DNA of 64,000 bases from Escherichia coli. GTDB taxonomy: Bacteria > Pseudomonadota > Gammaproteobacteria > Enterobacterales > Enterobacteriaceae. The notes below the pieces were generated by a model. It saw only the letters and a program-made list of their open reading frames with translations. It was not told the origin of the DNA and searched no databases. Within the stretch, counting starts at the first letter, position 1, and every line of letters begins with the position of its first letter. This document shows, piece by piece, positions 1,998 to 56,195 of the stretch. The stretch lies in the NCBI RefSeq assembly GCF_003790525.1, contig NZ_CP033635.1; one strand, written 5' to 3'. Made by a program: the position numbers and the translations under genes.

Positions 1998-2224
1998 TGA
2001 ATAAATCCTTTAGTTATTTTATTTGCCTTTTATCCCCATTTCGGGGAGTGAAAACATCCTAAAGGAGAAGTTCAGTTAGCCGATAAATATCATTTGTTAC
2101 GCCTTAAGTAAAACCTTAATCAAATAATTCCTCTGAAATGATAATAAGTCTGGTGAATGTATCGAAGATAATACATACAAAATAAAAATTATACTTTTAA
2201 TTTGCTATACGTTATTCTTCGCGG

Positions 2225-2333
2225 GTTATATGCCTTTATTGTCACAGATTTTATTTTCTGTTGGGCCATTGCATTGCCACTGATTTTCCAACATATAAAA
2301 AGACAAGCCCGAACAGTCGTCCGGGCTTTTTTT
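2225..2333 (+). ncRNA. micC: MicC small regulatory RNA (represses ompC)
   Basis: Sequence gttatatgcctttattgtcacagattttattttctg...gcccgaacagtcgtccgggctttttttt matches MicC as I remember it, including the terminator hairpin and T-run; lies in the ompN–ydbK intergenic region. Confidence 0.88.
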
Positions 2334-2362
2334 TAGAATTGGATAATCCTTATCCAGAGCAT

Positions 2363-8153: not shown

Positions 8154-10793
8154 ATGCTGGGTAAATATAAAGCCGTTCTCGCGCTGTTATTACTGATTAT
8201 TCTTGTGCCGTTGACGCTGCTGATGACGCTCGGGCTGTGGGTTCCTACGCTGGCGGGCATCTGGCTACCGCTCGGGACACGTATTGCATTAGATGAAAGC
8301 CCACGCATTACGCGTAAAGGTTTAATCATTCCCGATCTCCGTTATCTGGTGGGAGATTGTCAGCTTGCGCATATCACCAACGCCAGCCTTTCACATCCCA
8401 GCCGCTGGTTATTGAACGTCGGCACGGTAGAACTTGATTCTGCTTGTCTGGCGAAATTGCCGCAGACGGAGCAATCGCCAGCCGCTCCAAAAACCCTCGC
8501 GCAGTGGCAGGCCATGTTGCCTAACACCTGGATCAATATCGATAAACTGATTTTTTCTCCCTGGCAGGAATGGCAGGGAAAACTCTCTCTCGCATTAACC
8601 TCCGATATCCAGCAACTGCGTTATCAGGGCGAAAAAGTTAAATTTCAAGGCCAGCTGAAAGGGCAACAACTTACAGTCAGCGAACTGGATGTCGTCGCGT
8701 TTGAAAATCAGCCGCCGGTTAAACTGGTGGGGGAATTTACTATGCCGCTCGTGCCGGATGGACTTCCGGTAAGTGGGCATGCTACTGCGACGTTAAACTT
8801 GCCGCAGGAACCGTCACTGGTGGATGCAGAGCTGGACTGGCAGGAAAATAGCGGGCAATTGATCGTGCTGGCACGGGATAACGGCGATCCGTTGCTCGAT
8901 TTGCCGTGGCAAATTACTCGTCAACAATTGACCGTAAGCGATGGTCGCTGGAGCTGGCCGTATGCAGGTTTTCCTTTGAGTGGCCGACTGGGTGTCAAAG
9001 TCGACAACTGGCAGGCAGGGCTCGAGAACGCTCTGGTCAGCGGACGACTGAGTGTGCTGACCCAGGGGCAAGCGGGTAAGGGCAACGCGGTGCTTAATTT
9101 TGGCCCAGGAAAATTAAGCATGGATAACAGCCAGCTGCCTATGCAACTGACCGGTGAAGCGAAACAGGCGGACCTCATTTTATATGCCCGTTTACCTGCG
9201 CAGCTAAGTGGAAGTCTGTCTGACCCAACGTTGACCTTTGAGCCAGGCGCGTTACTTCGTTCAAAGGGAAGAGTCATTGATTCGCTGGACATCGATGAAA
9301 TCCGCTGGCCTTTAGCGGGTGTAAAAGTCACCCAACGTGGTATTGACGGACGTTTGCAGGCCATTTTGCAGGCGCATGAAAATGAACTGGGCGATTTCGT
9401 GCTGCATATGGATGGACTGGCGAATGATTTTCTCCCTGACGCTGGCCGCTGGCAGTGGCGCTACTGGGGAAAAGGCAGTTTTACACCGATGAATGCCACC
9501 TGGGATGTCGCAGGAAAGGGTGAGTGGCATGACAGCACGATTACGCTGACCGATCTCTCCACCGGTTTCGACCAGTTACAATACGGTACGATGACGGTAG
9601 AAAAGCCGCGACTAATTCTCGACAAGCCCGTCGTCTGGGTACGTGACGCACAGCATCCCTCCTTTAGCGGCGCGCTGTCACTGGACGCCGGGCAAACGCT
9701 GTTCACTGGCGGCAGTGTGTTACCGCCATCGACCTTAAAATTTAGCGTCGATGGACGCGATCCGACGTATTTCCTCTTTAAAGGCGATTTACATGCTGGT
9801 GAGATTGGCCCGGTTCGGGTAAATGGTCGCTGGGACGGTATTCGTCTGCGCGGTAACGCCTGGTGGCCTAAACAATCACTGACCGTATTCCAGCCGCTGG
9901 TGCCACCCGACTGGAAGATGAACTTACGCGATGGCGAACTATATGCCCAGGTCGCATTTTCTGCTGCGCCTGAACAAGGATTCCGCGCGGGAGGGCACGG
10001 CGTGTTGAAAGGCGGTAGTGCCTGGATGCCAGATAATCAGGTTAACGGTGTCGATTTTGTCCTGCCTTTCCGTTTTGCCGATGGAGCCTGGCATCTGGGG
10101 ACTCGCGGCCCCGTTACGTTGCGAATTGCCGAAGTGATTAATCTGGTGACAGCGAAAAATATTACGGCTGATTTGCAAGGGCGTTATCCGTGGAGTGAAG
10201 ACGAACCATTGTTGTTGACCGATGTTAGCGTCGATGTGTTAGGCGGTAACGTGCTGATGAAACAATTACGTATGCCGCAACATGACCCGGCGCTGTTGCG
10301 GCTGAATAATCTTTCCTCCAGCGAACTGGTTAGCGCCGTCAATCCGAAACAATTCGCCATGTCCGGGGCATTTAGTGGTGCATTGCCGTTATGGCTAAAC
10401 AACGAAAAATGGATAGTGAAAGATGGTTGGCTGGCAAATAGCGGGCCAATGACCTTGCGGCTGGATAAAGACACCGCAGATGCGGTGGTGAAAGACAATA
10501 TGACTGCGGGTTCAGCAATTAACTGGTTGCGCTATATGGAAATTAGCCGTTCATCGACAAAAATTAATTTAGATAATCTCGGTTTATTAACCATGCAGGC
10601 CAACATTACAGGTACCAGTCGCGTTGATGGTAAAAGCGGTACGGTAAATCTTAATTACCATCATGAAGAGAATATTTTTACGCTGTGGCGCAGTTTACGC
10701 TTTGGCGATAATCTCCAGGCATGGTTGGAGCAGAACGCACGTCTGCCGGGAAATGACTGTCCGCAAGGAAAAGAGTGTGAGGAAAAACAATGA
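8154..10793 (+). CDS. ydbH: AsmA-family inner-membrane-anchored protein (TamB/YhdP paralogue)
   Basis: 879-aa ORF with N-terminal TM anchor (MLGKYKAVLALLLLIILVPLTLLM); 4-nt ATGA overlap with ynbE. Confidence 0.88.
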   Translation: MLGKYKAVLALLLLIILVPLTLLMTLGLWVPTLAGIWLPLGTRIALDESPRITRKGLIIPDLRYLVGDCQLAHITNASLSHPSRWLLNVGTVELDSACLAKLPQTEQSPAAPKTLAQWQAMLPNTWINIDKLIFSPWQEWQGKLSLALTSDIQQLRYQGEKVKFQGQLKGQQLTVSELDVVAFENQPPVKLVGEFTMPLVPDGLPVSGHATATLNLPQEPSLVDAELDWQENSGQLIVLARDNGDPLLDLPWQITRQQLTVSDGRWSWPYAGFPLSGRLGVKVDNWQAGLENALVSGRLSVLTQGQAGKGNAVLNFGPGKLSMDNSQLPMQLTGEAKQADLILYARLPAQLSGSLSDPTLTFEPGALLRSKGRVIDSLDIDEIRWPLAGVKVTQRGIDGRLQAILQAHENELGDFVLHMDGLANDFLPDAGRWQWRYWGKGSFTPMNATWDVAGKGEWHDSTITLTDLSTGFDQLQYGTMTVEKPRLILDKPVVWVRDAQHPSFSGALSLDAGQTLFTGGSVLPPSTLKFSVDGRDPTYFLFKGDLHAGEIGPVRVNGRWDGIRLRGNAWWPKQSLTVFQPLVPPDWKMNLRDGELYAQVAFSAAPEQGFRAGGHGVLKGGSAWMPDNQVNGVDFVLPFRFADGAWHLGTRGPVTLRIAEVINLVTAKNITADLQGRYPWSEDEPLLLTDVSVDVLGGNVLMKQLRMPQHDPALLRLNNLSSSELVSAVNPKQFAMSGAFSGALPLWLNNEKWIVKDGWLANSGPMTLRLDKDTADAVVKDNMTAGSAINWLRYMEISRSSTKINLDNLGLLTMQANITGTSRVDGKSGTVNLNYHHEENIFTLWRSLRFGDNLQAWLEQNARLPGNDCPQGKECEEKQ

Positions 10794-25958: not shown

Positions 25959-26573
<615 letters not shown>

Positions 26574-31936: not shown

Positions 31937-33376
31937 ATGTCAGTACCCGTTCAACATCCTATGTATATTGATGGACAGTTTGTTACCTGGCGTGGAGACG
32001 CATGGATTGATGTGGTAAACCCTGCAACAGAGGCTGTCATTTCCCGCATTCCCGATGGTCAGGCCGAGGATGTCCGTAAGGCAATCGATGCAGCAGAACG
32101 TGCACAACCAGAATGGGAAGCGTTGCCTGCTATTGAACGCGCCAGTTGGTTGCGCAAAATCTCCGCCGGGATCCGCAAACGCGCCAGCGAAATCAGTGCG
32201 CTGATTGTTGAAGAAGGGGGCAAGATCCAGCAGCTGGCTGAAGTCGAAGTGGCTTTTACTGCGGACTATATCGATTACATGGCGGAGTGGGCACGGCGTT
32301 ATGAAGGCGAGATTATTCAAAGCGATCGTCCAGGAGAAAATATTCTTCTGTTTAAACGTGCGCTTGGCGTGACTACCGGCATTCTGCCGTGGAACTTCCC
32401 GTTCTTCCTCATTGCCCGCAAAATGGCCCCCGCTCTTTTGACCGGTAATACCATCGTCATTAAACCCAGTGAATTTACGCCAAACAATGCGATTGCATTC
32501 GCCAAAATTGTCGATGAAATAGGCCTTCCGCGCGGCGTGTTTAACCTTGTTCTGGGGCGTGGTGAAACCGTTGGGCAAGAACTGGCGGGTAACCCAAAGG
32601 TCGCAATGGTCAGTATGACAGGCAGCGTCTCTGCAGGTGAAAAGATTATGGCGACTGCGGCGAAAAACATCACCAAAGTGTGCCTGGAATTGGGGGGTAA
32701 AGCACCGGCTATCGTAATGGACGATGCCGATCTTGAACTGGCAGTCAAAGCCATCGTTGATTCACGCGTTATTAATAGTGGGCAAGTGTGTAACTGTGCA
32801 GAACGTGTTTATGTACAGAAAGGCATTTATGATCAGTTTGTCAATCGGCTGGGTGAAGCGTTGCAGGCGGTTCAATTTGGTAACCCCGCTGAACGCAACG
32901 ACATTGCGATGGGGCCGTTGATTAACGCCGCGGCGCTGGAAAGGGTCGAGCAAAAAGTGGCGCGCGCAGTAGAAGAAGGGGCGAGAGTGGCGTTGGGTGG
33001 CAAAGCGGTAGAGGGGAAAGGATATTATTATCCGCCGACATTGCTGCTGGATGTTCGCCAGGAAATGTCGATTATGCATGAGGAAACCTTTGGCCCGGTT
33101 CTGCCGGTGGTCGCATTTGATACGCTGGAAGAGGCTATCTCAATGGCGAATGATAGTGATTACGGCCTGACCTCATCAATCTATACCCAAAATCTGAACG
33201 TCGCGATGAAAGCCATTAACGGGCTGAAGTTTGGTGAAACTTACATCAACCGTGAAAACTTCGAAGCTATGCAAGGCTTCCACGCCGGATGGCGTAAATC
33301 TGGTATTGGCGGCGCAGATGGTAAACATGGCCTGCATGAATATCTGCAGACCCAGGTGGTTTATTTACAGTCTTAA
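31937..33376 (+). CDS. aldA: lactaldehyde dehydrogenase (NAD-dependent aldehyde dehydrogenase A)
   Basis: 479-aa ORF; aldehyde dehydrogenase family with catalytic Cys in QVCNCAERV. Confidence 0.93.
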   Translation: MSVPVQHPMYIDGQFVTWRGDAWIDVVNPATEAVISRIPDGQAEDVRKAIDAAERAQPEWEALPAIERASWLRKISAGIRKRASEISALIVEEGGKIQQLAEVEVAFTADYIDYMAEWARRYEGEIIQSDRPGENILLFKRALGVTTGILPWNFPFFLIARKMAPALLTGNTIVIKPSEFTPNNAIAFAKIVDEIGLPRGVFNLVLGRGETVGQELAGNPKVAMVSMTGSVSAGEKIMATAAKNITKVCLELGGKAPAIVMDDADLELAVKAIVDSRVINSGQVCNCAERVYVQKGIYDQFVNRLGEALQAVQFGNPAERNDIAMGPLINAAALERVEQKVARAVEEGARVALGGKAVEGKGYYYPPTLLLDVRQEMSIMHEETFGPVLPVVAFDTLEEAISMANDSDYGLTSSIYTQNLNVAMKAINGLKFGETYINRENFEAMQGFHAGWRKSGIGGADGKHGLHEYLQTQVVYLQS

Positions 33377-33386
33377 TGAGTGGAAG

Positions 33387-33409
33387 AGGCGGAGGTTTTT
33401 CCTCCGCCT
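33387..33409. terminator. hairpin between convergent aldA and gapC (possible bidirectional terminator)
   Basis: Perfect inverted repeat aggcggagg ttttt cctccgcct in the 40-nt gap between the two stop codons; no external U-run. Confidence 0.5.
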
Positions 33410-33416
33410 GTGTGCG

Positions 33417-34418
33417 TCAGAGTTTAGCGAATTTTTCGAGGGTGCGAATGAGCTGTGTGACGAAGCCATATTCGTTATCGTACCAGGCGACCGTTTTCAC
33501 CAGTTGTAAATCGCCCACGGCGGTAATTTCCGTTTGCGTGGCATCAAACACCGAACCGAAATGGCTGCCAATGATATCGGAAGAGACTATTTCTTCATCG
33601 GTATAACCAAATGACTCGTTATTGGTGGTTGCTTGTTTAAGTGCGTTATTCACCTCTTCGGCAGTCACTTTTTTTCCGAGAATGGACACCAGCTCAGTGA
33701 CCGAACCTGTTTTCACCGGCACGCGTTGCGCATGACCTTTCAGTTTGCCGCTCAGTTCCGGGATCACCAGACCAATGGCTTTTGCCGCACCTGTAGTGTG
33801 GGGAATGATATTTTCTGCCGCTGCACGTGAAGCGCGTAGATCTTTACCTCGCGGACCATCCACCAGTGACTGAGTGCCGGTATAGGCATGAATGGTCGTC
33901 ATCGTGCCGACTTCTATTCCGAAACTGTCGTGCAAGGCTTTGGCCATCGGTGCAAGACAGTTAGTGGTGCATGACGCCACGGAAACAATGGTGTCGTTGC
34001 CATCCAGTGTGTCGTCATTGACGTTATAAACGATGGTTTTCATTTCACCGGCAGGGGCGGAAATCAACACCTTCTTCGCACCAGCATCAAGGTGCGCCTG
34101 CGATTTCTCGGCGGAGGTATAAAAGCCAGTACATTCGACAATGATTTCTGCGCCTTTCGCTTTCCATGGAATATTTTTAGCCTCTTTTTCGGCGTAAACC
34201 GCGATACTTTTTCCATCAACGATAAGTGAATCTTCCGTAAAATCAACGCTCCAGGGGAACGGTCCGTAGTTTGAATCATGTTTCAACAGGTAGGCGAGAA
34301 TTTTTGGGGAAGTGAGATCATTAATAGCAACAATGTCTATGTTGCTTTTGACTTCAAGTAATCGACGCAACACCAGTCGACCGATACGACCAAAACCGTT
34401 AATACCAACTTTACTCAT
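33417..34418 (-). CDS. gapC: glyceraldehyde-3-phosphate dehydrogenase paralogue, intact ORF
   Basis: 333-aa uninterrupted ORF; NAD-binding [10 protein letters not shown] and active-site SCTTNCLAP present. Confidence 0.88.
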
Positions 34419-34606
34419 GGTCTTCTCCTGTCAGGAACGTTCGGATGAAAATTGATCCTTTCCAGGCTTAGACCAGGATGGCGGGATGGGCAATCTACAT
34501 TCTTGCCGTGAAACGTAACGTACTGAAAACGGGTGAACAATATTTAATGAAATTTTAAGAAAAGCTCGTTATGTTAACGGAAAATTATGTTAAAGCAGGA
34601 AATGTT

Positions 34607-35137
34607 ATGGAAAGTAAATATTCAAGGTTACAAATCGGCATTCACTGGCTGGTCTTTTTGCTGGTTATCGCAGCGTATTGCGCAATGGAGTTTCGTGGTT
34701 TTTTCCCACGTGGCGATAGGCCGCTTATCAACATGATTCATGTTTCCTGTGGCATCTCAATTCTCGTGCTGATGGTTGTTCGTCTTTTGTTAAGGCTTAA
34801 ATACCCAACTCCGCCGATTGTACCTAAACCAAAACCGATGATGACGGGACTGGCGCATTTGGGACATTTGGTGATCTATCTCCTGTTTATTGCGCTGCCA
34901 GTGATTGGTTTGGTGATGATGTATAACCGGGGCAACCCGTGGTCTGCGTTTGGTATGACAATGCCTTATGCAGCAGAGGCCAATTTCGAACGGGTTGATA
35001 GCTTAAAGTGGTGGCATGAGACGCTGGCGAATCTGGGATATTTTGTCATCGGGTTGCACGCTGCGGCTGCACTGGCACACCACTATTTCTGGAAGGACAA
35101 CACACTTCTACGCATGATGCCGCGTAAACGTTCCTGA
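34607..35137 (+). CDS. cybB: cytochrome b561 (superoxide oxidase)
   Basis: ORF track 34571..35137; start chosen at MESKYSRLQIGIHW to give 176 aa; polytopic with conserved His residues. Confidence 0.85.
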   Translation: MESKYSRLQIGIHWLVFLLVIAAYCAMEFRGFFPRGDRPLINMIHVSCGISILVLMVVRLLLRLKYPTPPIVPKPKPMMTGLAHLGHLVIYLLFIALPVIGLVMMYNRGNPWSAFGMTMPYAAEANFERVDSLKWWHETLANLGYFVIGLHAAAALAHHYFWKDNTLLRMMPRKRS

Positions 35138-35146
35138 AGGATATTT

Positions 35147-35211
35147 AAAGAAAACGCCTGTACTAAAACCGACCCGTGGTACAGGCGAAGAATACGGGTC
35201 TACATCGGAAG
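35147..35211 (-). ncRNA. rydC: RydC small RNA
   Basis: Reverse complement reads cttccgatgtagacccgtattcttcgcctgtaccacgggtcggttttagtacaggcgttttctt, matching RydC as I remember it; lies in the cybB–ydcA intergenic region. Confidence 0.75.
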
Positions 35212-35381
35212 CGCCTATTATATTTATTTGTATGACAAATAAAACCATAATCCTGGTCCATACGTCCATCTGGCTTATCTTTAATCAATTCACCCGATCT
35301 TTGATCTCATCAACGGTATCAAAATAAACCAGCGTATAACGTTCAAATCGAACATAAGATTCGATAAACCATGGAGGTTAT

Positions 35382-35555
35382 ATGAAAAAACTGGCACTTA
35401 TCTTGGTTATAGGAGCGCTTGTTTCCTTTTATGCCGATGCCGGGCGCAAACCCTGTTCTGGTTCGAAAGGGGGGATCTCACACTGTACGGCAGGCGGCAA
35501 ATTTGTCTGTAATGATGGTTCTATTAGTGCATCGAAAAAAACATGCACTAACTGA
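35382..35555 (+). CDS. ydcA: small secreted protein YdcA
   Basis: 57-codon ORF MKKLALILVIGALVSFYADAGRKPCSGSKGG...SKKTCTN with good RBS (ggagg); below the 60-aa track threshold. Confidence 0.8.
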   Translation: MKKLALILVIGALVSFYADAGRKPCSGSKGGISHCTAGGKFVCNDGSISASKKTCTN

Positions 35556-35627
35556 AGTGTAAAAGGGGTGCCATGAGAAAATGAATCTGCTAGTCAGATG
35601 CGCGGGGAAAATCCCCGCGCTTGCCCT

Positions 35628-35860
<233 letters not shown>

Positions 35861-36174
35861 TGGTCGGGGCCTTCGTCTTTCTGATTCCCGGTTAGCCTGA
35901 AAACAGAAAGTCTCAGGCACCCGTGAGCATCCTATGTGGTTTCCTTAAGGACGAAAATAATCACCTGACGAAATTGCGTGCTGTTTTCCAGAATTTTTCG
36001 TCATTCGGTTTAGCCAGTTTAATCATTCGTTACTCTCTTCATTCCAATGGCATTATTCTTCTCTGCCATAATTGTTGTAAAAATGTGACGCAAAGAGGTT
36101 TTTGGTCGTAAGAAATTACCGTCAAGTGCCGATGACTTTCTATCAGGAGTAAACCTGGAAGAGAGACAACGGTA

Positions 36175-37815
36175 ATGAATACAACTCCCTCACAGCGATT
36201 AGGTTTTTTGCATCACATCAGGCTGGTTCCGTTATTTGCCTGCATTCTTGGCGGTATCTTAGTTCTATTCGCATTAAGTTCTGCTCTGGCTGGCTATTTC
36301 CTCTGGCAGGCCGATCGCGATCAGCGTGATGTTACTGCGGAGATTGAGATTCGGACCGGGTTAGCGAACAGTTCAGATTTTTTGCGTTCAGCCCGGATCA
36401 ATATGATTCAGGCCGGGGCAGCGAGTCGTATTGCGGAAATGGAAGCAATGAAGCGAAATATTGCGCAAGCCGAATCGGAGATTAAACAGTCGCAGCAAGG
36501 TTATCGTGCTTATCAGAATCGACCGGTGAAAACACCTGCTGATGAAGCCCTCGACACTGAATTAAATCAACGCTTCCAGGCTTATATCACGGGTATGCAA
36601 CCGATGTTGAAATATGCCAAAAATGGCATGTTTGAAGCGATTATCAATCATGAAAGTGAGCAGATCCGACCGCTGGATAATGCTTATACCGATATTTTGA
36701 ACAAAGCCGTTAAGATACGTAGCACCAGAGCCAACCAACTGGCGGAACTGGCCCATCAGCGCACCCGCCTGGGTGGGATGTTCATGATTGGCGCGTTTGT
36801 GCTTGCCCTGGTGATGACGCTGATAACATTTATGGTGCTACGTCGGATCGTCATTCGTCCACTGCAAAATGCCGCACAACGGATTGAAAAAATCGCCAGT
36901 GGCGATCTGACGATGAATGATGAACCGGCGGGTCGTAATGAAATCGGTCGCTTAAGTCGTCATTTACAGCAAATGCAGCATTCACTGGGGATGACTGTAG
37001 GGACCGTTCGACAGGGCGCGGAAGAGATTTATCGTGGCACCAGCGAAATTTCAGCTGGCAATGCGGACCTGTCATCTCGCACCGAAGAACAAGCGGCGGC
37101 TATCGAACAAACTGCCGCCAGCATGGAGCAACTCACTGCGACGGTGAAACAGAATGCGGATAACGCGCATCATGCCAGCAAACTGGCGCAGGAGGCTTCT
37201 ATTAAAGCCAGCGATGGCGGGCAGATGGTTTCCGGTGTAGTAAAAACGATGGGCGCTATCTCCACGAGTTCGAAGAAAATTTCTGAGATCACCGCCGTCA
37301 TCAACAGTATTGCTTTCCAGACGAATATTCTGGCACTGAATGCTGCCGTTGAAGCCGCGCGAGCGGGTGAGCAAGGACGTGGATTTGCCGTTGTCGCCAG
37401 CGAAGTACGGACACTCGCAAGCCGCAGCGCTCAGGCGGCGAAAGAGATTGAAGGCTTGATCAGTGAATCAGTCAGGTTAATTGACCTGGGGTCGGATGAG
37501 GTGGCAACGGCAGGGAAAACCATGAGCACTATTGTTGATGCCGTCGCGAGTGTCACACATATCATGCAGGAAATCGCCGCCGCCTCGGATGAACAAAGTA
37601 GAGGCATAACGCAGGTTAGCCAGGCGATTTCTGAAATGGATAAGGTGACGCAACAGAATGCTTCTCTGGTAGAAGAGGCCTCAGCGGCGGCGGTGTCCCT
37701 TGAAGAACAGGCGGCACGATTAACTGAGGCGGTGGACGTATTCCGTCTGAACAAACATTCTGTGTCGGCAGAACCTCGCGGAGCGGGTGAACCAGTTAGT
37801 TTCGCTACGGTGTGA
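36175..37815 (+). CDS. trg: methyl-accepting chemotaxis protein III (ribose/galactose sensor)
   Basis: 546-aa ORF; two TM segments, HAMP, and conserved MCP signalling domain. Confidence 0.93.
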
Positions 37816-37826
37816 AAATGTTCAAG

Positions 37827-37848
37827 GAAGGGATCGACAGATCCCTTC
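37827..37848. terminator. hairpin between convergent trg and ydcI
   Basis: Perfect 9-bp stem gaagggatc gaca gatcccttc, 12 nt after the trg stop. Confidence 0.6.
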
Positions 37849-37853
37849 ACCTT

Positions 37854-38777
37854 TCAGAACGGCATTGATTTTCGAATAGCGTTAATCATCAACTGGCAAC
37901 CAGAAGAGAACGTCGCATCTACGCGGGTCAGTATTCCAATCGGTTCGCCTGCACCATGTCCCGGAACAGGCAGGGCCACCAGCGTGGCATGACGCAGGTC
38001 GTCTTTTACAGCGCCAGAAGGGACAAACCACACGTAGTCGTATTCAACCGTAAGTTGACGAGATAGCGAAGCAGACAGCGTTTCGATACAACCCGAAGGA
38101 ATTTTACATCCCTGGCTCTGCACTAATGCATCTGAATGCTGGCGTGGCGCAGTGCCTTCTGGTGATACAACGACCGGCCATTCCAGCACCCGGCTTAGCG
38201 TTACGTTCTCCTGAAGTAGCGGATGATTGGGGCGGACAACCAGCTTCAGCGATTCAAGAAACAGCAGTTCGTAATTAAGCCCGGTCATCAGTTCAGGATC
38301 TGACATCCGACCAATGCCGATATCGATTTCCCCGGTTTTTAAACCCGCCAGAATCATAGGGTTACTCATTGTCGCAACTTGCAAGGTCGTCTCTTTTTGT
38401 TGCTGATGAAACTGACCTATAACCGAAGGTAATATCCCCAGTGCCGCAGTAGGTAGTGCACCAACCCTGACGATATCATTATTAAGACCTTCTTTACGAT
38501 GAAGCGACTGTCCAGCAGTGTTGATGGCGTCAAGAACTCTGACTGCATGCGTTAAAAATTGTTCGCCGGGTAAGGTAAGTTGCGCCCCCTGACGACCACG
38601 CTCAAACAAGCGAGCGCCCGTCAGCTGCTCCAGTTCATTCAATGTCTTAGAGAGCGCAGGTTGACTCAAATTAAGGGTTTCAGCCGCGCGCCCCAAAGTT
38701 CCTTGTTGTGCGACAGCTACGAATGTATGAAGGTGGCGCAAACGGATGCGCTGACTAAACAGACTATTTTTTTCCAT
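37854..38777 (-). CDS. ydcI: LysR-family transcriptional regulator
   Basis: ORF track 37854..38918; start chosen at MEKNSLFSQRIRLRHLHTFVAV to give 307 aa; N-terminal HTH. Confidence 0.85.
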   Translation of the reverse strand: MEKNSLFSQRIRLRHLHTFVAVAQQGTLGRAAETLNLSQPALSKTLNELEQLTGARLFERGRQGAQLTLPGEQFLTHAVRVLDAINTAGQSLHRKEGLNNDIVRVGALPTAALGILPSVIGQFHQQQKETTLQVATMSNPMILAGLKTGEIDIGIGRMSDPELMTGLNYELLFLESLKLVVRPNHPLLQENVTLSRVLEWPVVVSPEGTAPRQHSDALVQSQGCKIPSGCIETLSASLSRQLTVEYDYVWFVPSGAVKDDLRHATLVALPVPGHGAGEPIGILTRVDATFSSGCQLMINAIRKSMPF

Positions 38778-43183: not shown

Positions 43184-44155
43184 CCCTGCCAGCGGCGTTC
43201 GCGTAATGCGCTCCTCGCCGTTAATGACTTTTGGACCACGGACATGAACCGTGTCGCCATCAAAGGCTTCAACGACGGCGTGGTCGGTTAACTCCACATG
43301 GTTTTCAATTATCACCGCACCTGTAATACGGCTCTCACCTTGTATGACAACGTGCTCGTCGAGCAGAATCGGTCCGCCACGTACCACGGCATTTCCGCCA
43401 ATCAAGACATGATGTTTTAACACACAATTACCTTCCACAATGGCATATTCCGCCACCTGCGAACTGTAATGAATCGTCGGAATGGCATCTTCTTCTATGC
43501 CAGCTTTCACCTGCGCGTGACCGTAGACTTTAGCACAATCGCATAGCCAGACGTTGTTCTCTTCATTACCCTCAATACTGGCAAAATCAAAAACTTCGGC
43601 GCGATGTTCAATAAAAGCATACCGGACGACGGCATCGCCATAAATTTGTGCCTGGTGGACAATCCGCGAGGCGCTAACCCTCGCGCGATCATAAATTTGT
43701 AGCAGGAGTTGATGGTCGGGCGTTAAGCCTTGTGCGGCGACGATCATAGAATGTTGATCAATTAAGGCGTGACCAAATATTCTACATTGACCGCAAACTA
43801 ATGAGTCACTAATGGTGACACTGTCACTTATATATGCACCCTGGCTGATTTCACTATTATCGATCCAGACATTATCCGTTGCGTAAACCTCTCCCCACAG
43901 CACGCTGGTGCCGGTGATACGCGTATTCCCGGAAATCACCGTTCCGCCGAACGCAATAGCATTCTGGTCGTAAATCCAGCAATTTCCTTCCTGTGCTAAC
44001 ACCGTTTCGCGATCGATCCAGCCGCCAGCGGTTCCTGCTATCACATCGTTAAAATCGCTAATGGCGATAATCTGCCGTAATAACACATTTTTTTTAGTGC
44101 CATCTTCCTGATAACTAAAGGCTCGCTGTTCTTCACTTAGACGATATTTGCGCAT
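43175..44155 (-). CDS. ydcK: hexapeptide-repeat (left-handed beta-helix) protein
   Basis: 326-aa ORF with repetitive hexapeptide-like pattern; 3' end overlaps the rimL 3' end by 9 nt. Confidence 0.85.
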
Positions 44156-55049: not shown

Positions 55050-56195
55050 ATGAGCAAGATTTTTGCCCGCAGCAGCCTGTGTGCGCTCACCATGACAATA
55101 ATGACCGCTCACGCCGCCGAACCGCCTACCAATTTAGATAAACCGGAAGGGCGACTGGATATTATCGCCTGGCCGGGATACATCGAACGCGGACAAACTG
55201 ATAATCAATACGACTGGGTAACGCAATTCGAAAAAGAGACAGGCTGCGCGGTGAATGTGAAAACCGCCGCGACTTCCGATGAAATGGTCAGTCTGATGAC
55301 CAAAGGGGGTTACGATCTGGTTACGGCATCCGGCGATGCCTCGCTGCGCCTGATTATGGGCAAACGCGTGCAGCCGATTAATACCGCATTGATTCCCAAC
55401 TGGAAAGCGCTCGATCCGCGCGTGGTTAAAGGCGACTGGTTTAACGTTGGCGGCAAAGTTTACGGCACACCTTACCAATGGGGGCCGAACCTGCTGATGT
55501 ACAACACTAAAACCTTCCCGACGCCGCCGAATAGCTGGCAAGTGGTTTTTGTTGAGCAGAATCTGCCGGACGGCAAGAGCAATAAAGGCCGCGTTCAGGC
55601 TTATGATGGCCCTATCTACATTGCGGACGCTGCGTTGTTCGTTAAAGCCACTCAGCCGCAGTTGGGCATCAGCGATCCGTATCAACTCACCGAAGAACAG
55701 TACCAGGCGGTGCTGAAAGTGCTGCGCGATCAACATAGTTTGATCCATCGCTACTGGCATGACACTACCGTGCAAATGAGCGATTTCAAAAACGAGGGTG
55801 TAGTTGCTTCCAGTGCATGGCCCTATCAGGCCAACGCCCTGAAAGCCGAAGGCCAGCCTGTCGCTACCGTTTTCCCGAAAGAGGGCGTTACCGGTTGGGC
55901 TGACACCACCATGCTACATAGCGAAGCGAAACATCCGGTTTGCGCCTACAAATGGATGAACTGGTCATTAACCCCAAAAGTGCAGGGCGATGTGGCGGCC
56001 TGGTTTGGCTCGCTACCAGTAGTGCCGCAAGGGTGTAAAGCCAGTCCGTTATTAGGCGAGAAAGGTTGTGAAACAAACGGTTTTAACTATTTCGATAAAA
56101 TCGCCTTCTGGAAAACGCCTATAGCAGAAGGGGGCAAGTTTGTTCCCTACAGTCGCTGGACGCAGGATTACATTGCCATTATGGGTGGTCGCTAA
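55050..56195 (+). CDS. ydcS: periplasmic polyamine-type ABC substrate-binding protein
   Basis: 381-aa ORF with signal peptide; first gene of a four-gene ABC transporter cluster. Confidence 0.88.
   Translation: MSKIFARSSLCALTMTIMTAHAAEPPTNLDKPEGRLDIIAWPGYIERGQTDNQYDWVTQFEKETGCAVNVKTAATSDEMVSLMTKGGYDLVTASGDASLRLIMGKRVQPINTALIPNWKALDPRVVKGDWFNVGGKVYGTPYQWGPNLLMYNTKTFPTPPNSWQVVFVEQNLPDGKSNKGRVQAYDGPIYIADAALFVKATQPQLGISDPYQLTEEQYQAVLKVLRDQHSLIHRYWHDTTVQMSDFKNEGVVASSAWPYQANALKAEGQPVATVFPKEGVTGWADTTMLHSEAKHPVCAYKWMNWSLTPKVQGDVAAWFGSLPVVPQGCKASPLLGEKGCETNGFNYFDKIAFWKTPIAEGGKFVPYSRWTQDYIAIMGGR

Follow-up and report, generated by a model that had tools for sequence, protein, structure and literature searches.

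An intact rydC gene with a probable YieP operator in the cybB-ydcA intergenic region of Escherichia coli

The stretch of Escherichia coli DNA analysed here, a window of 64 kb, contains on its minus strand a gene of 65 nt at 35147..35211, which was assigned as rydC on the basis of a match to the Rfam family RF00505 and of its identity to the rydC gene of E. coli K-12 (b4597). Transcription of the gene starts at position 35211 and ends at 35147/35148, so that nucleotide k of the RNA corresponds to window position 35212-k, and the minus-strand reading of 35211..35147 yields the RNA CTTCCGATGTAGACCCGTATTCTTCGCCTGTACCACGGGTCGGTTTTAGTACAGGCGTTTTCTTT. On its 3' side, rydC faces the convergent gene cybB (34607..35137, plus strand), which encodes the cytochrome b561 / superoxide oxidase and whose stop codon is separated from the 3' end of rydC by 9 nt. 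On its 5' side, it is flanked by the divergent gene ydcA (35382..35555, plus strand), encoding a secreted small protein of 57 residues. The cybB reading frame extends to an upstream in-frame ATG (34571..35137, plus strand, 188 residues), while the protein annotated in K-12 and by PGAP comprises 176 residues with a start equivalent to 34607.

Several other features were recognized in the same stretch. Upstream of cybB, gapC is found as an intact open reading frame of 333 residues (33417..34418, minus strand), which in annotations of O157:H7 and SMS-3-5-like strains is described as type I glyceraldehyde-3-phosphate dehydrogenase and in K-12 MG1655 as pseudogene. Beyond ydcA, the genes hokB (35627..35776) and mokB (35667..35834) are both located on the minus strand. 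A match to the Rfam family sok (RF01794) with a score of 105 bits covers 35771..35922 and has the orientation of the hokB/mokB mRNA leader (minus strand). Since sokB of K-12 is annotated on the opposite plus strand, in the equivalent of window positions 35824..35880, the model seems to correspond to the hok-mRNA side of this hokB/sokB type I toxin-antitoxin locus. Finally, a distant region (2222..2342, plus strand) gives a full-length match to the Rfam family of the small RNA MicC (RF00121), scoring 125.3 bits compared to a gathering score of 90.

The assignment of rydC is founded on two comparisons. In a search of the entire window with Rfam 15 at gathering thresholds, which returned three matches, RydC among them, the RF00505 model aligns to 35211..35148 on the minus strand with a score of 92.5 bits (E 5.2e-17), almost twice its gathering score of 48. 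The match extends over model positions 1-64 of 64, with zero non-canonical pairs flagged, and the model is 1 base shorter at its 3' end than the 65-nt annotation in K-12. The second comparison concerns K-12 MG1655 itself, where the ncRNA rydC (b4597, 65 nt) is annotated on the minus strand at 1491442..1491506, flanked by cybB (b1418) and ydcA (b1419), both on the plus strand. Window positions 35147..35211 are identical to this gene at 65 out of 65 positions (100%), again on the minus strand and between cybB and ydcA, and the same 65 nt are found in the window, in K-12 and in an O157:H7 strain in an alignment of 301 nt, where rydC occupies columns 190-254. Both results bear out an initial annotation that had recognized RydC from the sequence at 35147-35211 of the minus strand between cybB and ydcA, as the model is matched over its full length, the proposed span coincides exactly with the K-12 annotation, and the location is bounded by the end of cybB at 35137 and by ydcA. 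Over a wider region (33000..38000), E. coli SMS-3-5 and several further strains match the window at 100% identity.

When 5426 complete E. coli genomes were queried with 64 nt of rydC, 5411 of them yielded a single copy of the gene. The copy is identical to the query in 4063 cases, and the remaining ones show 95-99% identity, with the exception of two. This distribution places the match far beyond chance. Five of the approximately 5411 copies reside on records labelled as plasmids, which could reflect wrongly labelled replicons or artefacts of assembly. Taken together, we regard it as practically certain that 35147..35211 of the minus strand is rydC, encoding the Hfq-dependent trans-acting small RNA of about 65 nt found in Escherichia, Salmonella, Citrobacter and related enterobacteria. 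It is thus an already known gene in its canonical locus, with all described functional elements intact. Among the records that were listed for the matches or opened, a rydC feature is annotated only in the K-12 reference and it is absent from the automatically annotated (PGAP) RefSeq records, including the three that were opened, and its recovery in a scan is therefore useful annotation work. Beyond correct annotation, the importance of the finding is small. RydC is a textbook Hfq-dependent small RNA: its complex with Hfq has been solved, and its target cfa, by which it influences cyclopropane fatty acids of the membrane and the tolerance of stress, is well mapped.

For a comparison across genera, a collection of genomes was scanned for homologues with the pattern CTTCCGATGTNGACCCGT, resulting in 13 loci. 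Ten of them contain true RydC, nine with Rfam matches and a tenth (L014) that is truncated where the locus ends. The nine complete copies originate from Escherichia, Salmonella enterica subsp. arizonae, Citrobacter koseri, C. amalonaticus and three other Citrobacter species and were, together with two divergent E. coli alleles, combined into an alignment of 11 sequences. The other three loci (L007, L010 and L016), from metagenome-assembled genomes labelled Clostridia, Terrabacteria and Kiritimatiellae, show neither an Rfam match nor any similarity beyond the 17-mer and are chance matches rather than instances of horizontal transfer. In all nine homologous loci, cybB is found on the 3' side of rydC, at a distance of 11-172 nt in eight cases and of about 1.65 kb in C. 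amalonaticus (L013). Conversely, ydcA is the divergent neighbour in Escherichia only, as also described in a published study (PMC11340327). In the locus of C. koseri NCTC10786 (L008), a tblastn comparison aligns cybB (8765..9295) with the E. coli protein only as three separate pieces, suggesting a frameshifted or decayed copy in this strain.

The fold of the RNA can be described by two helices (S1 and S2) and two unpaired ends. The first 11 nucleotides (CUUCCGAUGUA, 35201..35211, minus strand) constitute the seed, which is unpaired in both helices and thus single-stranded. Helix S1, as defined in the Rfam consensus structure, is formed by nucleotides 12-18 (GACCCGU, 35194..35200) and 35-41 (ACGGGUC, 35171..35177), the latter arm containing G37 and G39. 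Helix S2, as obtained from the minimum free energy structure, pairs nucleotides 25-33 (CGCCUGUAC, 35179..35187) with 49-57 (GUACAGGCG, 35155..35163) and is followed by the U-rich 3' tail UUUUCUUU (35147..35154), which is evident from the sequence and marks the end of an intrinsic terminator. Calculated separately, the energies of both helices amount to -10.5 kcal/mol for S1 and -13.8 kcal/mol for S2. Since the 5' arm of S2 is contained within the loop of S1, both helices together form an H-type pseudoknot. The initial annotation had described the 3' end as terminator with a run of uridines and, with respect to a stem of 9 bp that precedes UUUUCUUU, this description is accurate. The hairpin is, however, not a plain terminator but one of the two helices of the pseudoknot. 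In this arrangement, S2 and the tail double as intrinsic terminator, with the fold leaving the 11 nucleotides at the 5' end single-stranded. A consensus terminator scan missed the real rydC terminator, the loop of which comprises 15 nt. Two hairpins that were flagged in the scan, at 35186..35172 and 35128..35107, are regarded as chance or partial matches.

The minimum free energy structure of the single RydC sequence is no stabler than that of shuffled sequences (z = -0.48) and shows the terminator helix only, and the fold is thus supported by covariation and by the published crystal structure instead of the energy. In the alignment of 11 sequences from three genera, the pseudoknot is formed by standard pairs in 98.4% of cells, compared to 27-43% in a control where the 3' partners were shifted by 1-3 columns. 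Helix S2 is paired in 100% of cells, and four of its nine pairs display two-sided changes across Escherichia, Salmonella and Citrobacter (G-C to A-U, U-A to C-G, A-U to G-C and C-G to U-A). In S1, whose 5' arm was fixed by the pattern used for the homologue search, pairing is found in 96.6% of cells with 0 two-sided changes. This helix is almost invariant, and its only substitutions, A-U to G-U and U-A to U-G, occur in two natural variants of E. coli, where pairing is kept by wobbles; they are compatible with the helix but do not prove it. The pseudoknot was described to be conserved in previous work, where its disruption by the mutations G37C/G39C destabilized the RNA in vivo (PMC4337610).

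The crystal structure obtained for RydC bound to Hfq has defined how the RNA is held, with the 3' U-tail located on the proximal face of the protein and two UU steps, U23/U24 and U46/U47, touching its rim (PMC4337610). The equivalent residues are found in the window at 35188..35189 (the conserved UU loop step U23/U24) and 35165..35166 (U46/U47, the second conserved UU step) on the minus strand, and together with the tail and the two guanines G37 and G39 the described determinants are thus all present. In the proposed mechanism, Hfq would hold the RNA by its 3' U-tail and both UU steps.

The seed region was compared with the 212-nt leader of the K-12 cfa mRNA. Nucleotides 3-11 of RydC are complementary to positions -107..-99 of the cfa 5' untranslated region, forming 9 bp with one G-U pair, and the best duplex, encompassing nucleotides 2-11 of RydC and -108..-98 of cfa (5'-CUACGUCGGAU-3'), has an energy of -12.6 kcal/mol. 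For the longer segment of nucleotides 1-16, the energy of the interaction with cfa amounts to -18.3 kcal/mol, a value that only 11 out of 1000 shuffled seeds reach. The predicted site spans G-101 and the position between G-100 and A-99, where the E. coli cfa mRNA is cleaved by RNase E, and the pairing was proved by the mutation G-101C in combination with a compensatory mutation in RydC (PMC6755755). On the side of the target, 5398 out of 5426 E. coli genomes share an identical segment of 41 nt that encloses the site. On the side of the small RNA, the pattern used for the scan fixed nucleotides 1-18, and the homologues thus do not gauge the conservation of the seed independently. According to the same study, only the long sigma-70 isoform of cfa is regulated by RydC, which masks the cleavage site and thereby stabilizes the mRNA (PMC6755755), and RydC was in addition shown to inhibit Rho-dependent termination at cfa (PMC11340327). 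A weaker repression by RydC has been published for yejABEF, csgD, trpE and pheA. The initial annotation had also described RydC as an Hfq-dependent regulator of cfa, in agreement with the literature (PMC4337610, PMC6755755, PMC11340327) and with the computed complementarity between seed and target.

Upstream of the transcription start, the promoter of rydC contains a sigma-70 -10 box with the sequence TATAAT at -11..-6 (35217..35222, minus strand). A -35 box is not recognizable upstream of the start, and a scan for consensus promoters consequently returned no hit. The same organization of a promoter with a -10 and no -35 box was described previously (PMC11340327). The TATAAT sequence is kept in the rydC homologues, except for C. 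koseri, where it is replaced by TATACT. Next to this box, at -29..-15 of rydC, we find a palindrome of 15 bp (35226..35240) that reads ATTTGTATGACAAAT on the plus strand and lies in the intergenic stretch separating rydC from the divergent ydcA. The palindrome matches 15 out of 15 positions of atTTGTaTGAcaAAT, the motif determined by ChIP-exo for YieP, a regulator of the GntR/FadR type (PMC7642389), and it is the sole site in the entire window with fewer than three mismatches to this motif. In contrast to the flanking sequence, the two half-sites have been retained in Salmonella and in most of the Citrobacter copies. Within E. coli, the half-sites ATTTGT...ACAAAT of the window are perfect, whereas K-12 carries a G-to-A substitution that converts one of them into ATTTAT. 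Three other substitutions distinguish the upstream sequence of the window from that of K-12, at -69, -47 and -45. The version of -1..-36 found in the window is the majority form, present in 3989 of the 5415 E. coli genomes, or about 74%.

Two further observations concern the occurrence of related sequences. In C. koseri NCTC10786, the rydC palindrome reads ATTTGTATGACAAAT on the strand of rydC. The window harbours three more cores of the form TTGTnnnACAA (26481..26491, 43340..43350 and 56066..56076), amounting to a total of four compared to about one expected from base composition, and the core at 43340 (TTGTATGACAA) corresponds to that of the YieP motif without the flanking AT/AT.

YieP probably represses rydC by way of this palindrome, which would then constitute its operator. 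Both rydC and ydcA were listed in 2020 as targets of YieP (PMC7642389), and in later work the repression of rydC by YieP amounted to about 20-fold in E. coli and to 7.5-fold in Salmonella (PMC11340327). The latter study, published in 2024, found no known sites for transcription factors in the rydC promoter and did not place a YieP site (PMC11340327). Upstream of K-12 yieP and yohJ, we find no strict match to the generic FadR-type operator TnGTnnnACnA and no near copy of the rydC palindrome with fewer than three half-site mismatches, and our assignment of the operator therefore rests on the published MEME motif rather than on a comparison of YieP targets. We lean towards the view that the palindrome is a direct YieP operator of rydC, and probably of ydcA as well, whose natural variation would set different basal levels of RydC and Cfa in different E. 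coli lineages. Since targets and motif were already contained in the ChIP-exo data from 2020, this reading refines known biology only slightly. The one small addition is that a perfect YieP consensus can be placed exactly in the promoter, which offers a concrete site for the repression reported in 2024.

The strong repression by YieP also bears on the question of whether the locus might be silent. The stretch could be viewed as a mere terminator or 3' structure of cybB or as a decayed and silent relic of rydC, in line with the short distance of 9 nt that separates the rydC 3' end from the cybB stop codon and with the observation that under standard conditions wild-type cells contain hardly detectable amounts of RydC (PMC11340327). 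On the plus strand, however, the S2 hairpin is followed by GAAGAAUACGG, which does not contain a run of uridines, and it would thus make a poor terminator for cybB. Similarly, a relic is difficult to reconcile with the intact sequence, -10 box and probable operator and with an RNA that is identical to that of the functional gene in K-12, and the low expression is explained by repression instead of decay, since on Northern blots RydC was detectable only upon deletion of yieP (PMC11340327). We thus consider either version of this proposal very improbable. Even less credible, and in our view nearly negligible, is an assignment of the stretch to a small protein gene on the minus strand with a secondary resemblance to RNA, for although a mechanical list of open reading frames contains two candidates of 53 (35108..35269) and 41 residues (35163..35288), no coding sequence is annotated there in the records of K-12 and O157:H7 (PGAP), both frames begin upstream of the -10 box in sequence that is unconserved outside Escherichia, the larger one enters the coding region of the convergent cybB, conservation starts at the promoter and stops at the U-tail, and changes within the RNA compensate pairs instead of following a codon pattern.

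The features of the locus are consistent with a mechanism where Hfq dependence, protection from RNase E, the increase of Cfa and repression by YieP are taken from the literature and where the expression of this particular copy is predicted from its sequence. Under ordinary conditions, YieP would keep the rydC promoter nearly silent, presumably by occluding the spacer and the -35 region when bound to the palindrome. Once transcribed, the free seed of RydC would pair with the long isoform of cfa, which is transcribed from a sigma-70 promoter and contains the 212-nt leader, at about -107..-99. By covering the RNase E site, it would stabilize the cfa mRNA and in this way lead to the production of more cyclopropane fatty acid synthase.

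The described gene can be compared to three known systems. Its closest counterpart is RydC of K-12 MG1655, which shares the same 65 nt, the orientation relative to its neighbours, the flanking genes cybB and ydcA and the -10 box, with no difference in the RNA. RydC of Salmonella enterica, the copy that was crystallized in complex with Hfq (PMC4337610), has the seed, S1, the UU steps, the U-tail and the convergent cybB in common with the gene of the window, but its 5' neighbour is not ydcA (PMC11340327). In the homologue from Salmonella enterica subsp. arizonae (L012), the arms of S2 are GCCUGCGU/ACGCAGGC, compared to GCCUGUAC/GUACAGGC in the window, and thus differ by three compensatory changes of base pairs, and two single-base insertions are found in loops. 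The third system, ArrS, is the other small RNA known to activate cfa, and it acts at a site on the long cfa leader that overlaps with the one of RydC, following the same logic of protection from RNase E (PMC6755755). Despite this functional likeness, ArrS is unrelated to RydC as a gene and in its sequence, it is subject to a different regulation, and it is encoded outside of the rydC locus.
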